Source of the DNA: Thermoplasmata archaeon
Lineage (GTDB): Archaea; Thermoplasmatota; Thermoplasmata; Lutacidiplasmatales; UBA184
Reading direction: 5' to 3'
Assembly: GCA_030037815.1 (NCBI GenBank)
Contig: JASHPZ010000062.1
Location: 1 to 63,052 of the forward strand
DNA length: 63,052 bases
The position numbers and the translations under genes are program-made. This document shows, one piece after another, positions 3,667 through 59,834 of this stretch. Numbering within the stretch: the stretch's first letter is position 1; each line of letters starts with the position of its first letter. Under the pieces are notes generated by a model. That model did not search any database and was not told the origin of the DNA. It saw nothing but the letters and a program-made list of their open reading frames with translations.

Positions 3667-5688
3667 GTGCCGCCGCCCCCGACGATCGCGCAGCAGCTCG
3701 CGGCGAAGCAACGGGAGATCTCGGTCGCGGAGTTCTTCGAGCGGAACCGCCAGATCCTCGGGTTCGACAACCCGCAGCGGGCGCTCCTCACCACCGTGAA
3801 GGAGTGCGTCGACAACTCCTCCGACGCGAGCGAGGAGGCCGGGATCCTGCCCGAGATCCTGGTCGAGATCGCGAAGGAGTCCGAGGAGCGACTTCGGGTC
3901 GCCGTCACGGACAACGGGCCGGGGATCCTCCGCAAGGAGATCCCGAACGTCTTCGCCCGCCTGCTCTACGGCTCCCGATTCCACTCGAACCGCCAGGCGC
4001 GCGGACAGCAGGGGATCGGGGTCAGCGCCGCGGTCCTCTACGCGAACCTCACGACCGCGCGGCCCGCCCACATCACGTCCAAGGTCGAGGAGGAGGAGGC
4101 CGCCCACGTGCTCGACCTCGTCATCGACACCCAGAAGAACCAGCCGCGGGTCGTCTCCGAGGACGTCGTCCTCTGGGACCGGCCCCACGGCACGAAGGTC
4201 GAGCTCGTCATCAAGGCGCGGTACACCCGCGGCCGGCAGTCGCCCCTCGAGTACCTGCGGGGGACGGCGATCGTCAACCCGCACGCGCGGGTCGTCTTCG
4301 TCGAGCCGGACGGGACCCGCACGACGTTCGAGCGCGCCTCCACCGACCTCCCGCCCGCGGCGAAGGAGACCCTCCCGCACCCGTACGGGCTCGAGCTCGG
4401 GGAGCTCGGCTACCTGCTCAAGTCGACCCGCCGCCCGACCCTCGGTGAGTTCCTCGCGAAGGACCTGCAAGGGGTGAGCGCCCGCGCGGCGAAGGAGCTG
4501 CTCGCGAGCTCGGGACTGCCGGCCTCGACCGCCCCCGCGTCGGTCCAGGCCGAGCGCCAGGAACGGCTCCTGGCGGCGCTCCACGCGGCGCCGCTGGTCG
4601 CGCCGTCGGCCGACTGCCTCTCCCCGATCGGCGCGATGCTGATCAAGCGCGGCCTGCGGAACGTCCTCGGCGACCTCCGCCCCGAGTTCTTCGCTCCGCC
4701 GGTGAGCCGCCCGCCGAAGGTCCGAGCGGGATTCCCGTTCATGGTCGAGGTCGGGCTCGTCTACGGCGGGGGGCTCCCGCCGGACCAGCCGATCCAGATC
4801 CTCCGGTTCGCCAACCGGGTCCCGCTCCTGTTCCAGCAGGGGGCGTGCGCGATCACGAACGCGATCTGCGCGATGGACTGGCGGCGGTACGGGCTCGACC
4901 AGAAGGGCGGCTCGGGGCTTCCGTCCGGACCCGCGCTGATCCTCGTCCACGTCGCCTCGACGAAAGTGCCGTTCACGAGCGAGGCGAAGGAGGCGGTCGC
5001 CGAGGACCCGGACCTCGACAAGGAACTGACGCTCGCCCTCCAGGCGGCGGCCCGCCACCTGCGAACGCACCTCTCGCGAAAGAGCCGACGCGACTTCGCG
5101 GGCGAGAAGTTCGAGATCATCGGGCGGATCCTGCCGAAGCTCGCCGAGAAGACGAGCCGTCTGGTGGGGAAGCCGACCCCGGACCTGACGCCCGTGATCA
5201 CGCGCATCATGGACGTCGTGAACGTCGAGACGAAGGTCGCCCCGGACGCGAAGCAGGTCGAGGTCGGCGTCGACATCACGAACTACACGCCGCGCGCCCG
5301 CGTCCTCGAGGTGTTCGTCGAGATGCCGCCCGAACTCCTCCCGCTCGCGACCCACGCCCCCGCGCCCGACGGTTCGGACCCGGCGCTCGGTCGGGTCTGG
5401 TGGACGCTGCCGAAGCTCGGGCCGAACGGCCGGACCCGCCTCGCCATCACGCTCCCCCCGAAGACCGACGTCGAGGCGAACGACCTCGACTGGTACGTCG
5501 CCGGCGTGGACGAGGCGCACCTCCTGGGCGCCGACCCCCTGCCCGGCGACTGGGACGTCCGACTGCCGCGGACGATCGTCGAGGCGGCGGAGGCCGCGGC
5601 GGCCGAGGAGGCCGCCGGGGGCGGGACGGAGGAGGAGGTCGATTACGATGCCGCCGAAGCGGGCGAAGGTCGCGCCGACGAAGAGTGA
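3667..5688 (+). CDS. top6B: DNA topoisomerase VI subunit B
   Basis: GHKL ATPase N-terminus ([23 protein letters not shown]). 673 aa. Directly followed by, and overlapping, top6A. Confidence 0.92.
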
Positions 5689-13623: not shown

Positions 13624-13730
13624 GGCCGGGACCGAGAGTCTCAGGGGAGGGGGTCGGCCCCGTCCCGCTTTGAACCCGGGTCGAGGGATCCACAGTCCCC
13701 CAGGATAGGCCAAGCTACCCCATCCCGGCC
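13624..13730 (-). tRNA. tRNA-His (anticodon GTG) with a 31-nt intron in the T-loop
   Basis: Minus-strand read: G(-1), GCCGGGA, U8 G9, GGGT-AGCTTGGCCTA-TCCT, G26, GGGGA-CTGTGGA-TCCCT, CGAC, CCGGG-TTCAAA[31 nt]T-CTCGG, TCCCGGC, C73. The acceptor stem has 7/7 Watson-Crick pairs plus an encoded G-1:C73 pair. The T stem pairs 5/5, including one G-U. A TATA-like element lies about 27 nt upstream. CCA is not encoded. The fold was done by hand only. Confidence 0.7.
13638..13668 (-). other. Putative tRNA-His intron (T-loop, between positions 59 and 60)
   Basis: GCGGGACGGGGCCGACCCCCTCCCCTGAGAC. Removing it restores a TTCAAAT T-loop. The intron forms a GC hairpin (GGGG-CCGA-CCCC, extended). T54-T55-C56 can pair with GAG near the intron 3' end, which leaves 3-nt bulges (AAA and ACT). 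Confidence 0.55.
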
Positions 13731-13754
13731 ACGGGCGTTGGACGAATCGCCTCC

Positions 13755-56446: not shown

Positions 56447-57810
56447 ACGCGGAGAGCCTCCGCCGCGACTTTCCGGCCCTCGAGCCCGCGCCCGGCCGCT
56501 CCGCGCCCGTCTACCTCGACTCGGCCTGCATGTCGCTCGTCCCGCGCACCGTCCTGGACGCGATGGAGGAGTACTACACCCAGTACCCGGGGTGCGCGGG
56601 CCGCTCCCTCCACCGGTTCGCGGAGGAGGTCGGGCGGCGGTTCGAGGAGAGCCGCCACGCGTTCGCGCGGTTCCTCGGGCGCGCCGACCCGCGGGGCGTC
56701 GTCTTCGTGCGGAACTCGACCGAAGCGTTGAACCTCGTCGGGCAGGGGCTCGCGTGGAAACGGGGCGACCGCGTTCTGATCTCGGACCGCGAGCACAATT
56801 CGAACCTGGTGCTCTGGCAACGGCTCGCCGCGGAGCGGGGGATCCGGATCGAGATCCTGGAGCTGCCGGACAACGGGACGTGGGACGGGGACGCGCTCGA
56901 GACGGCGCTCGGCCGCGGCGTCCGCCTCGTCAGCCTGTTCCACACCTCCAACCTCGACGGACGGACACTTCCCGTGCGCGAGGTCGCGGAGCGCGCGCAC
57001 GACCGCGGCGCGCGCGTCCTGATCGACGGGTGCCAGGCGGCCCCGCACCGCGCGGTCGACACCGACCGCCTCGGGGTCGACTTCTACGCCGTCTCGGCGC
57101 ACAAGATCCTCGGCCCGACCGGCACCGGCGTGCTCGCCGGGGCGCCCGACGCGATGGCCGAACTCCGGCCGCTCCTCCTGGGCGGCGAGACGGTTGAGTG
57201 GAGCACGCTCGAGGCGCACGAACTGCGACCGCCCCCGCACCGGTTCGAAGCCGGACTCCAGAACTACGCGGGGGTCCTCGGCGCGCGCGCCGGCATCGAG
57301 TACCTCCAAAGGGTCGGGTTCGAGACGGTGGACGCGCAGCAACTGCGCGTCAACCGCCGGGTGACCGAGGGGCTCCGCGACCTCGACCGGGTCCACGTCC
57401 TCGGCGCCGACGACCCGCGCGAACGGTCGTCGATCTTCGCGTTCACGGTGGACGGCGTCGACCCGAACGACGTCGCGGTGTTCCTGGACGAGGGCCACGG
57501 CGTGATGGTCCGGTCCGGAATGCACTGCGTCCACTCGTTCTACGCGCGGCGCGGTCTCGCGGGGAACGCGCGCGCGTCGTTCTACTTCTACAACGACGAC
57601 GCCGACGCGGACGCCCTGGTCGCGGGGGTCCGCGAACTGGTCGCGCGGGTGCCGTTCAGCGGTACATCGGCGGGGAGGGCGGCGTCGCCGACTCGCCCCG
57701 CGTCCGGTCCGCGGCGTGGCGCTGGATCGACAGGAGCTGCTGCTCGATCCGCTCGGCCTCGGCGTAGAGCGGCACGGGGTCGAGGGGCGTCCGCAACAGG
57801 ATCCGGTTGA
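56443..57810 (+). CDS. Cysteine desulfurase (class V aminotransferase, SufS/CsdA-like)
   Basis: The GTG overlaps the upstream TGA (GTGA). The PLP lysine context is AVSAHKILGPTG and the catalytic Cys context is VRSGMHC. The Arg/Ala/Gly-rich C-terminal ~50 aa overlap the convergent gene. Confidence 0.85.
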   Translation: MNAESLRRDFPALEPAPGRSAPVYLDSACMSLVPRTVLDAMEEYYTQYPGCAGRSLHRFAEEVGRRFEESRHAFARFLGRADPRGVVFVRNSTEALNLVGQGLAWKRGDRVLISDREHNSNLVLWQRLAAERGIRIEILELPDNGTWDGDALETALGRGVRLVSLFHTSNLDGRTLPVREVAERAHDRGARVLIDGCQAAPHRAVDTDRLGVDFYAVSAHKILGPTGTGVLAGAPDAMAELRPLLLGGETVEWSTLEAHELRPPPHRFEAGLQNYAGVLGARAGIEYLQRVGFETVDAQQLRVNRRVTEGLRDLDRVHVLGADDPRERSSIFAFTVDGVDPNDVAVFLDEGHGVMVRSGMHCVHSFYARRGLAGNARASFYFYNDDADADALVAGVRELVARVPFSGTSAGRAASPTRPASGPRRGAGSTGAAARSARPRRRAARGRGASATGSG

Positions 57811-58471
57811 TCGTCTCGATCACCTTCGCCGCGGCGCGCGCGTCCGGGTAGTCGGCCTGCGCTTCGGCGAGGAACGTCAGCACGTCGAACCCGCGCCGCC
57901 GGCCCTCGTTGAGCAGGACGCCCGCGATCCCGGTGATCACGCCTTCCGCGAACGGGATCATGTTCGGCTCGACGTAGAGGTCGCGGGCGCGCCGCGTGCT
58001 CGCGACGCCGTAGACCTTCACGTCGTTGAGCCGCGGCGCGCGGGACGGCTTTCCGCCCGGCGCGGCCCCCTCGACCACGAGCCCTTCCGGGGAGACGAGG
58101 AGCGAACAGCGCTGTTCCTGGACCCAGTCGATGATCGTGTTGGCGAGCGGGTGGATGATCGCGGGGGCGGGATGGAACTCGCTCACGAACGCCACGATCT
58201 TGTCGGCCCCCCGCCCGGCGCGGTCCGCCGGGGGTCGGCCAGCGTAGATACGGACCGGATGCTGCGGGTTGCCGTTCCGAACGAGGGAGACGGTCGGGAA
58301 CGCCGGCGACTCGACGATGCCGATCTGTTCCATCTCGAGAGTGTCGATCAGGTAGTTCGCGACGATCGAGCTGACGAGGCCGACCGACGGAAAGCCGTCG
58401 ATGACGAGGGCCCCCTCGACGTCGACCCGCTTGATCTCGTAGATCCGGACCTGGTCCGGTGCCATCGGCAT
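57656..58471 (-). CDS. Proteasome assembly chaperone family protein (PAC2/PbaA-like)
   Basis: The layout ALVIDGFPSVGLVSSIVANYLI...GVITGIAGVLL is typical of the archaeal PAC2 family. 271 aa. Confidence 0.65.
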   Translation of the reverse strand: MPMAPDQVRIYEIKRVDVEGALVIDGFPSVGLVSSIVANYLIDTLEMEQIGIVESPAFPTVSLVRNGNPQHPVRIYAGRPPADRAGRGADKIVAFVSEFHPAPAIIHPLANTIIDWVQEQRCSLLVSPEGLVVEGAAPGGKPSRAPRLNDVKVYGVASTRRARDLYVEPNMIPFAEGVITGIAGVLLNEGRRRGFDVLTFLAEAQADYPDARAAAKVIETINRILLRTPLDPVPLYAEAERIEQQLLSIQRHAADRTRGESATPPSPPMYR

Positions 58472-58831
58472 CTAGAGCGACCTCTCGACGATCTGCCCGA
58501 GCTCCTTCGAGATCAGGTCGACCAGGTTCTTCGTGAGCGCGGTCCGGACCTCGGGCGGGAGCGCGGAGAGTCCGAGGCGCGCCGTGGTGGTGCCGACGCG
58601 CACGAGCGCCGCGTACTCCATCGCGCGGGCGTGCAGGAGTTCGCGGACGGCCTCCTTCAGGTCGGCCTCGAGCTGGGGGTCGTCGTGGAGCGTCTTCTCG
58701 AGGTGGCGCCGGATCTCGTCCTTGACGATGTCGCGGGTCGCTTCGCGGACGAGCTCCTCGGGGCGGAGGAGATCGCGCGAGCTCTTCACCAGCACGTCGA
58801 TCGGCTCGCCGGACGAAGGCTCGCCCGCCAT
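58472..58831 (-). CDS. Hypothetical helical protein
   Basis: ATG at 58831. 119 aa, charged and helical. It is directly contiguous with the PAC2-family gene. The track ORF upstream of 58831 runs across tRNA-Ala and is rejected. Confidence 0.45.
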   Translation of the reverse strand: MAGEPSSGEPIDVLVKSSRDLLRPEELVREATRDIVKDEIRRHLEKTLHDDPQLEADLKEAVRELLHARAMEYAALVRVGTTTARLGLSALPPEVRTALTKNLVDLISKELGQIVERSL

Positions 58832-58918
58832 GCGGCGGCCGAGCCGGACCCGGCGCTTAAGCGTTTGTCCGGAGGCGCGCGCCGCTCCGCCGGAAAACCG
58901 CCCCGTTTCCGGCGAAGA

Positions 58919-58927
58919 GGTTAAACT
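58919..58927 (+). promoter_or_regulatory. TATA-like element (GGTTAAACT) upstream of tRNA-Ala
   Basis: Lies 25-33 nt upstream of the tRNA 5' end at 58952. Confidence 0.4.
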
Positions 58928-58951
58928 GCCGGCCGCCTCGGCGGCGGAAGT

Positions 58952-59056
58952 GGGCCGGTAGATCAGCGGAAGATCGCTACCTTGGCAAGGTAGAGGTCGC
59001 GAGTTCAAAGGGGTCGGAGGCGCCGGCCTCCGGTCCGGAAGTTCTCGCCCGGTCCA
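58952..59056 (+). tRNA. tRNA-Ala (anticodon GGC) with a 33-nt intron in the T-loop
   Basis: Read: GGGCCGG, TA, GATC-AGCGGAA-GATC, G, CTACC-TTGGCAA-GGTAG, AGGTC, GCGAG-TTCAAA[33 nt]T-CTCGC, CCGGTCC, A73. All stems pair, and the acceptor stem contains the G3:U70 alanine identity pair. The fold was done by hand only. Confidence 0.8.
59010..59042 (+). other. Putative tRNA-Ala intron (T-loop, between positions 59 and 60)
   Basis: GGGGTCGGAGGCGCCGGCCTCCGGTCCGGAAGT. Removing it restores a TTCAAAT loop. The intron forms a long hairpin (GGGTCGGAGGC-GCCG-GCCTCCGGTCC). T54-T55-C56 can pair with GAA near the intron 3' end, which leaves bulges (AAA and GTT). Confidence 0.6.
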
Positions 59057-59125
59057 CCTACCGTCCGCGCCGCGGACGGGGTCCGTCGGCACATGTCGAA
59101 GGTACCCACCGACACCAAGAGCATC

Positions 59126-59134
59126 GATTTATAC
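59126..59134 (+). promoter_or_regulatory. TATA-like element (GATTTATAC) upstream of the HTH regulator gene
   Basis: Centred about 27 nt upstream of the GTG at 59157. This supports that start and a leaderless mRNA. Confidence 0.4.
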
Positions 59135-59156
59135 CGGCCCGTCGGTCCGGCGCGTC

Positions 59157-59834
59157 GTGGAGGCCGAGATCCGCGAGAAGATCGCGGGCGAGGTCGTCCT
59201 CTCTCCGCATCCGGGGCGTACGCTTCGGAAGTGGCGCGAGGACTTCGGGATCTCGCAGCGCGACCTGGCGAAGCACCTCGCCACGGTGCCGTCGGTGATC
59301 TCCGACTACGAGAGCGAGCGCCGCGTCAGCCCCGGCGCCGGGTTCATCCGGCGGTACGTGGACGGACTGCTCGCGCTCGATGCCGAGCATGGCGGCCCGG
59401 TCGTGCAGCGGTTCGGGCTCCGGCCGCACTCCGAAGGGATCCTCGGCATGCGGGAGTTCGCGGTCGCCATCCCGCTGAAATCGCTGGCCGACCAGCTCGA
59501 CGCGCGCGCGGTGAGCCGGGTCGACCTCCATCGGGACATCCACGGGTTCACCGTCCTGGACGCCCCGCGCGCGATCCTCTCGATCGACGCGTCGCGGTTC
59601 GTCGAGGTGTACGGCTGGACGACCCAGCGCGCCCTCATCTTCTCGAACGTGAAGTACGGCCGCTCCCCGATGGTCGCGATCCGCGCGCATCCCTTGAAGC
59701 CGGCCGCGGTCGTCTTCTCGAACCCCGGGCGCATCGACCCGCTCGCGGTGCGCCTGAGCGAGGTCGAGAACATCCCGCTCCTCTCCACGGCGCTCGCCGC
59801 GCCGGCCGTTCTCGAACGGCTCGAGGAGCTCTAA
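59157..59834 (+). CDS. XRE/Cro-C1-type HTH transcriptional regulator with a C-terminal archaeal domain
   Basis: The HTH region is [34 protein letters not shown]. 225 aa. Located directly upstream of the HMG-CoA synthase operon. Confidence 0.75.

Follow-up and report, generated by a model that had tools for sequence, protein, structure and literature searches.

How could an archaeal tRNA-Ala(GGC) gene whose T loop is split by 33 nucleotides give rise to a standard tRNA? The question is raised by a 105-nt locus in a stretch of 63,052 nucleotides, which we refer to as the window. The source genome is a MAG of 1.57 Mb in 94 contigs, 89% complete and with a GC content of 72%. Judged by the tRNA splicing endonuclease EndA, its closest relatives are soil and peat MAGs labelled "Thermoplasmata archaeon", UBA184 and UBA61 among them. 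The host is a high-GC Thermoplasmata archaeon from peat, related to the TMEG/UBA184 (Lutacidiplasmatales-type) soil genomes.

We put at about 90% the probability that the locus is a functional tRNA-Ala(GGC) gene with a 33-nt bulge-helix-bulge (BHB) intron between nucleotides 59 and 60 (59/60), which would be cut by the single alpha'2 EndA of the host and joined by RtcB. The primary transcript would carry the intron between these two T-loop nucleotides, and in the precursor U54-U55-C56-A57 would pair with the GGAA at the 3' end of the intron, giving three pairs and an A.G. With the T stem closing one side and the 11-bp intron hairpin the other, the bulges AA/G and GU/U (the slash marks the cut) would be displayed. 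The alpha'2-type EndA would cut after the second nucleotide of each bulge and RtcB would join the exons, leaving a 7-nt T loop, UUCAAAU. Cleavage, ligation and the splice junction of this pre-tRNA are predictions from sequence, and we assume that an enzyme of the alpha'2 type would process T-loop introns efficiently. Points that weigh against this reading are the A.G at one helix position, the poor cutting of a D-loop BHB intron by an alpha'2 EndA in vitro (PMC3241643) and the reviews that assign only 37/38 introns to alpha4 and alpha'2 organisms (PMC4090602, PMC5829648). The features on which this reading is built are collected in Table 1.

Table 1. Coordinates of the tRNA-Ala(GGC) gene, its intron motif, its neighbours and other loci of the genome. 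Plain numbers are positions in the window.
Feature	Position	Strand	Basis or remark
PAC2-family gene	57656..58471	-	neighbour of tRNA-Ala(GGC)
Possible archaeal TATA-like box TTAAA (putative)	58921..58925	+	by sequence; 27-31 nt upstream of mature 5' end
tRNA-Ala(GGC) gene	58952..59056	+	105 nt including intron
5' exon, nucleotides 1-59 (acceptor 5' strand to T loop U54-A59)	58952..59009	+	sequence, Rfam partial match 58952-59007, ARAGORN on spliced form
Acceptor 5' strand GGGCCGG	58952..58958	+
Outer helix h, 5' strand (T stem GCGAG, G49-G53)	58999..59003	+	pairs with 59044-59048; 5 pairs, invariant
T-loop part TTCAAA	59004..59009	+
Central helix H, 5' strand (U54 U55 C56 A57)	59004..59007	+	faces 59037-59040; pair counting, 44 sequences
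5' bulge A58 A59 / G59010	59008..59010	+	predicted cut after 59009
Intron, 33 nt, between nucleotides 59 and 60	59010..59042	+	sequence, spliced-form ARAGORN call, scans
Inner helix h', 11-bp hairpin (59011-59021 with 59026-59036, loop GCCG)	59011..59036	+	minimum-free-energy fold and covariation
Central helix H, 3' strand (GGAA)	59037..59040	+	orthologue comparison and pair counting
3' bulge G59041 U59042 / U59043 (U60)	59041..59043	+	predicted cut after 59042
3' exon (U60, T stem 3' strand, acceptor 3' strand, A73)	59043..59056	+	sequence and orthologue alignment
U60 (T)	59043	+
Outer helix h, 3' strand (T stem CTCGC, C61-C65)	59044..59048	+	pair counting and register comparison
Acceptor 3' strand CCGGTCC	59049..59055	+
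A73	59056	+
HTH regulator gene	59157..59834	+	neighbour of tRNA-Ala(GGC)
tRNA-His(GTG), encoded G-1, 31-nt 59/60 intron at 13638..13668	13624..13730	-	scans, R1 50 bits
tRNA-Lys(UUU), two introns: 35 nt at 59/60 and 31 nt in D loop (about 20/21)	G000:C45:5131-5165 and 5205-5235	-	only R1, 26.9 bits
tRNA-Arg(GCG) D-loop intron, 29 nt	G000:C87:37779-37807	-	locus L150
tRNA-Pro(UGG) D-loop intron, 31 nt	G000:C53:6741-6771	+	locus L149
EndA gene, 354 aa (P0001)	L001:1465-2529	-	contig 91

The earlier note, made from the letters of the window, had described a tRNA-Ala(GGC) with this intron, and every element that it named was found where it had placed it. The 5' exon contains the D arm GATC/GATC, the anticodon arm CTACC-TTGGCAA-GGTAG with the anticodon GGC, and the variable loop. 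The alanine identity elements listed in that note, the G3:U70 pair and the A73 discriminator, are both present in addition to the anticodon, with G3:U70 occurring in 44 of 44 orthologues. The 3' exon is followed by CCT, so that CCA is not fully encoded. In its unspliced form the gene yields no ARAGORN call and no Rfam match at the gathering threshold; a permissive search against the Rfam tRNA model gives 24.8 bits (gathering score 29), with the T arm skipped. Taking out the 33 nt restores a standard tRNA: ARAGORN calls the spliced sequence tRNA-Ala(ggc), in keeping with the cloverleaf foreseen earlier, and the spliced T loop is the same 7-nt loop as in intronless orthologues. For comparison, 67.5 bits are obtained with an intronless sister-family orthologue whose T arm and acceptor are identical. 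In the genome, a MAG whose completeness of 89% leaves strictly some room for a hidden intronless copy, we found no other tRNA-Ala(GGC) gene. At 72% GC, GCC would be expected to be a major codon.

The intron lies in a BHB structure made of two 3-nt bulges on opposite strands with a 4-bp helix between them, one position of which is an A.G. Both flanking helices of the strict hBHBh' form are there, h being the 5-bp T stem and h' the 11-bp hairpin. The minimum-free-energy fold of the gene consists of the acceptor stem, the T stem and this intron hairpin, which the earlier note had estimated at the same length, and has an energy of -54.5 kcal/mol (z = -4.0); none of 200 shuffles folded as well. The central helix (3 bp and A.G) is not drawn by RNAalifold or RNAfold, and because energy folding fails to draw it we assessed it by explicit pair counting. 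The pairs U54-A, U55-A and C56-G are formed in 100% of 44 sequences, with changes from U-A to U.G among them. This agrees with the pairing of T54-T55-C56 with GAA proposed before. The 5' bulge has to be redrawn: instead of AAA beside a 3-bp helix it consists of A58-A59-G59010, while A57 faces G59037 as a fourth, non-Watson-Crick helix position.

We prefer a 4-position helix with one conserved non-Watson-Crick pair over the AAA bulge because its register matches that of the 37/38 introns of the genome. Cutting after the second bulge nucleotide gives exactly a 59/60 intron and a 7-nt T loop, and the same rule is obeyed by the canonical 37/38 introns of Met (contig 38) and Leu-UAA (contig 47). 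Position 57 covaries with its partner in the intron: a G57 faces C in four genes (Arg-UCG, two Gly-UCC and Lys-UUU), and in tRNA-His A57 pairs with U. Among 45 tRNA-Ala orthologues the partner of A57 is G in 43, with A in a single orthologue and a pairing U in another. The T-loop motif is thus close to a strict hBHBh', with two 3-nt bulges, a 4-position helix and both flanking helices.

The two canonical introns at G000:C38:6919-6948 (Met) and G000:C47:11980-12000 (Leu-UAA) have an A.G at the helix position adjoining the 5' bulge, as at 59007/59037 of the window. Such an A.G, which is also found in most T-loop introns, looks like a lineage-typical feature of BHB motifs.

To see how far the T-loop site is used in the genome we combined a whole-genome scan that looks for the BHB first, with ARAGORN run on the spliced candidates, a T-loop-specific scan and a covariance model, R1, of the T arm and intron. 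The BHB-first scan was adopted because ARAGORN -i on the whole genome returned 87 calls that were mostly false, with kilobase "introns" at 72% GC, and these were discarded. Eleven tRNA genes have 59/60 introns of 29-35 nt: Ala-GGC and His-GUG, both in the window, Arg-UCG, Arg-UCU, Ser-GGA, Ser-GCU, Ser-CGA, Glu-CUC, Gly-UCC (two loci) and Lys-UUU. D-loop introns, which have no outer helix, were found in three genes (Arg-GCG, Pro-UGG and Lys-UUU), and 37/38 introns were mapped in at least three (two Met-type and Leu-UAA). tRNA-Trp gives a 100-nt Rfam match and an ARAGORN intron call, and is likely to be interrupted as a fourth gene with a 37/38 intron. With tRNA-Trp counted, 17 of about 38 recognisable tRNA genes bear introns, and in 13 of them, about a third of the genes, the intron is off-site.

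The survey of 59/60 introns that the earlier note had proposed therefore found eleven, and its two broader expectations were borne out. The first was a common site in tRNA-His and tRNA-Ala: the 31-nt insert of tRNA-His is at 59/60 and has the same architecture. ARAGORN mis-calls this gene as 13652..13731 (-), building the T arm from intron sequence. The second was a lineage-wide habit, and besides the eleven genes of this genome, R1 gives 4-12 hits per genome in 13 genomes of the family, and the Ala intron is present in 167 of 180. These family tallies, the R1 counts included, take in the unpublished genomes G019, G188 and G189, whose omission changes no conclusion. Outside the family, 21 of 107 genomes from other Thermoplasmata families show 1-3 R1 hits. 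Six of these hits (L216-L221) were inspected by eye and a 59/60 BHB was seen in all six. Intron removal produced ARAGORN calls in three, L216, L217 and L218 (from G055, G285 and G037), which are His-GUG, Leu-UAA and Ala-CGC; L219-L221 look like multi-intron genes. Judged by the R1 counts in 13 family and 107 other genomes, the 59/60 site is used sporadically across the class and has been massively expanded in the family of the host.

For about ten tRNA species (Asn, Asp, Gln, Ile, Tyr, Val-GAC, Leu-UAG, Ala-CGC and others) no gene turned up with Infernal, ARAGORN or the BHB scans; these genes may lie in the absent 11% of the genome or be disrupted otherwise. Because ARAGORN and Rfam miss or mis-call the interrupted genes, genomes of this widespread soil and peat lineage seem short of essential tRNAs (Ala-GGC, His, Arg, Ser, Glu, Gly, Lys) when tools unaware of BHB introns are used. 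We also observed two Gly(UCC)-Ser(UGA) loci, G000:C66:1-260 and G000:C92:44080-44320, with slightly different exons and different T-loop introns, to be explained either by duplication or by a second strain having been included in the MAG.

The D-loop introns follow another plan. In Arg-GCG and Pro-UGG the central helix is formed by nucleotides 13-16 with the 4 nt before the 3' bulge. Both 3-nt bulges and the inner hairpin are in place, and only a single G.U stands for the outer helix, which puts these introns in the relaxed HBh' class. Each has been kept throughout the genus. A second family shares the Arg-GCG intron and a third lacks it; its central helix covaries between families (TAGC/GCTG versus TAGT/ACTA). 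By the standard cut rule the predicted mature D loops of Arg-GCG and Pro-UGG are 12 nt, longer than those of intronless relatives. The two comparisons contain one G019 sequence each (L161 for one and L184 for the other), and leaving these out changes no conclusion.

The enzyme expected to process all these introns is encoded by a single EndA gene. The protein matches PF02778 and PF01974 twice each, corresponding to two tandem N+C endonuclease units, and NCBIfam NF006795 from end to end; among solved structures its best full-length relatives are 1r0v and 2gjw, both of the alpha'2 enzyme from A. fulgidus. The catalytic Tyr/His/Lys triad is intact and aligned. One polypeptide with two units, a triad in the C-terminal unit only and no separate beta gene all point to an ordinary alpha'2 two-unit enzyme, and this answers, at the level of sequence, the question of subunit type that had been raised for this host. 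An RtcB ligase gene is present in the genome.

Residues 4-171 of the catalytic unit align with residues 4-171 of M. jannaschii 1a79 with gaps of only 1-2 residues, and no insertion is seen at any of the three known sites of specificity loops (CSL/L1, ASL/L2 and L3). The Crenarchaea-specific loop (CSL) has been grafted at the E174-L178 site of A. fulgidus EndA (PMC3241643), and the alignment has no length change there. Nor does an alignment with 12 other Thermoplasmata families reveal a family-specific insertion or deletion: sister families in which such introns are few or absent have a collinear EndA. The earlier suggestion of an endonuclease with relaxed BHB specificity is not supported in that form, given a near-strict hBHBh' motif and a plain alpha'2 EndA that has no CSL-, ASL- or L3-type insert and is collinear with its sister-family counterparts. 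Since the T-loop motif is close to strict, relaxed recognition of the motif is not required for tRNA-Ala.

In the motif YGSRVGDRL of this EndA, the two positions that align with E174 and L178 of A. fulgidus are both arginine. The R..R arrangement occurs in 73 of 79 close relatives and the second arginine in 79 of 79; both are mostly absent in other families.

It is conceivable that the intron is real and is processed because the alpha'2 EndA of the family has become broader in the substrate position or motif that it accepts, through point changes and with no loop insertion. We regard this, a modified version of the earlier suggestion, as unlikely, while noting that several observations speak for it. 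Off-site introns occupy about a third of the tRNA genes, and the three in D loops are of the relaxed type; those of Arg-GCG and Pro-UGG have been kept across the genus and that of Arg-GCG in a second family with covariation of H. A plain alpha'2 enzyme is also poor at such a task in vitro, where the wild-type EndA of A. fulgidus barely cleaved a pre-tRNA from A. pernix with a BHB intron in its D loop (PMC3241643). Because of that result and the outer-helix-less D-loop introns of the host, some broadening of EndA range by subtle changes is possible, and arginines at the site of the CSL graft would be candidates for such changes. However, the three loop sites carry no insertion, the enzyme is collinear with that of sister families, and the T-loop motif is so nearly strict that relaxed recognition is not demanded. 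The second arginine also occurs in a family in which T-loop introns were not detected and is missing in families that have one; because it does not track T-loop introns across families, we take the arginines as a lead only. The wider claim, that off-site introns (59/60 and outer-helix-less D-loop) interrupt about a third of the tRNA genes in an entire Thermoplasmata family and are processed there by a loop-less alpha'2 EndA of really broadened range, seems to us more doubtful still. If true, such an enzyme, broadened for example via the two conserved arginines at the CSL position, would be a new and simpler route to broad specificity, and would run counter to the accepted view that intron diversity has co-evolved with loop insertions in EndA.

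A 33-nt intron at 59/60 that is cut by an ordinary alpha'2 EndA, the reading that we favour, can be set against what is known of archaeal introns. Reviews describe alpha4 and alpha'2 organisms as having 37/38 introns only (PMC4090602, PMC5829648), and intron diversity as tracking EndA loop insertions (PMC5829648). Off-site or multiple tRNA introns are tied in them to endonucleases of the (alpha-beta)2 or epsilon2 type or to inserted loops, whereas the family of the host has a plain alpha'2 enzyme and is an exception to that generalisation. The site itself and archaeal off-site BHB introns are already known, and the tRNA-Ala(GGC) instance is not a novel type. In the literature we found no report of off-site tRNA introns in Thermoplasmata or Lutacidiplasmatales, "59/60" not being searchable as a term, and the word "intron" is absent from the Lutacidiplasmatales paper.

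The closest precedent is Candidatus Micrarchaeum acidiphilum ARMAN-2, with 59/60 introns in pre-tRNA-Pro(GGG), of strict hBHBh' form, and in pre-tRNA-Cys(GCA), of hBH form (Fujishima et al. 2011, PMC3239211). The T-loop site, the BHB logic and the short hairpin introns are the same. The difference is that ARMAN-2 belongs to DPANN and has a three-unit epsilon2 EndA with a specificity loop, while here a Thermoplasmata lineage with plain alpha'2 uses the site in about ten tRNA species per genome. Canonical archaeal 37/38 BHB introns share the motif, the cut register and the enzymes, and those of Met and Leu(UAA) in this host the A.G as well; they differ in using the anticodon loop, with the anticodon stem as outer helix, in place of the T loop and T stem. 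The Thermoproteales are reportedly the subject of a survey of non-canonical tRNA introns by Sugahara et al. 2008. The non-canonical BHB introns of Crenarchaeota (PMC3241643) resemble the present ones in the many off-site interrupted genes per genome and in multi-intron genes, here Lys-UUU. They are associated with an (alpha-beta)2 EndA carrying the Crenarchaea-specific loop, which is absent in the EndA of the host. In Methanopyrus kandleri an EndA that has no such loop processes HBh' introns of the D arm (Kaneta et al. 2018, PMC5829648). This organism is likewise of euryarchaeal grade, has no specificity loop and has relaxed D-arm introns that parallel the D-loop introns of Arg-GCG, Pro-UGG and Lys-UUU, but its enzyme is an (alpha-beta)2 heterotetramer, as opposed to the single-chain alpha'2 type with dominant 59/60 introns found here. 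With one recombinant enzyme and short transcripts the family offers a simple, testable system for the limits on EndA substrate range, and it also bears on why the 59/60 site was colonised repeatedly.

The comparison of orthologues addresses what selection has kept at the locus. The 167 family genomes that have the whole 105-nt gene, intron included, span all 7 genera and comprise 66 of 67 high-quality genomes. The exons of 44 orthologues are almost invariant, with changes confined to a compensating 5:68 pair, a 2-nt difference in D-loop length and variable-loop position 47. The introns are almost all different (44 sequences of 27-34 nt among 45 orthologues), and all keep H, both bulges and the hairpin. 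The spacing of the BHB is identical in 45 of 45 orthologues and in 11 paralogues, and the first two nucleotides of the 3' bulge vary among orthologues while the third, the exonic U60, never does. In the 44-sequence alignment 93.5% of cells are paired, compared to 32-54% when the partners are slid by 1-3 columns, and the covariation score was reached by none of 500 shuffles. Double compensatory changes are seen in 7 of the 8 modelled pairs of the intron hairpin. Seventeen readable tRNA-Ala genes (GGC, UGC and CGC) from 20 genomes sampled in other families of its order and class have an uninterrupted T loop, TTCAAATC(T/C)CG. Invariant exons, varying introns with preserved H, bulges and hairpin, and intronless sister families, taken together, point to the 59/60 intron of tRNA-Ala(GGC) as an old, fixed, family-level feature that appears to be selected for its shape only.

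These data also bear on whether the 33 nt might be retained, so that the mature tRNA would have an enlarged T-loop hairpin. The hairpin is stable, as such a structure would need to be, but its retention would split A58 and A59 from U60 and break the conserved T-loop fold. A free sequence combined with a BHB geometry and cut register kept in all 45 orthologues and 11 paralogues is the pattern predicted by selection for endonuclease recognition, and sister families have the gene uninterrupted; we consider retention very improbable. Least probable of all is that the locus is a pseudogene in decay, the scar of an integration or an artefact of assembly. This would account for the failure of standard tRNA finders on it but not for exons that hardly vary in 7 genera although the flanks and the intron do, for orthologous loci in so many independently assembled genomes, for the lack of another tRNA-Ala(GGC) found in the genome, or for an insert whose 33 nt are much too few for a mobile element or a self-splicing intron.

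As to its origin, the spliced intron that we propose shows no conserved information in its sequence beyond recognition needs, and for that reason the most likely account is an insertion, neutral or mildly useful, that was acquired at the base of the family and is now fixed. The intron is most likely also part of a burst that placed the same kind of intron in about ten other tRNA genes. A self-splicing or mobile-element origin is ruled out by the size of the intron and the lack of conserved intron sequence.

The gene sits in a 685-nt spacer between the PAC2-family gene and the HTH regulator gene. Three ORFs overlap this region, 57716-58924(+), 58472-59092(-) and 58533-58961(+), and were rejected as coding since none has a Pfam match. 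From the PAC2 gene start to the tRNA, the approximately 480 nt at 58472..58951 contain no supported gene. A ZMP-ZTP Rfam match at 58882-58949 is probably due to chance (18 bits versus 39 needed), and an naRNA4 match beside the tRNA gene (15.7 versus 59.5 needed) was taken as chance too. A sigma-70 scan, a type of scan that is not applicable here, returned nothing; the TTAAA of Table 1 is a putative TATA-like box. The runs listed as containing the part of the window from 58300 to 59700 are DNA runs only, from peat, soil and wetland.
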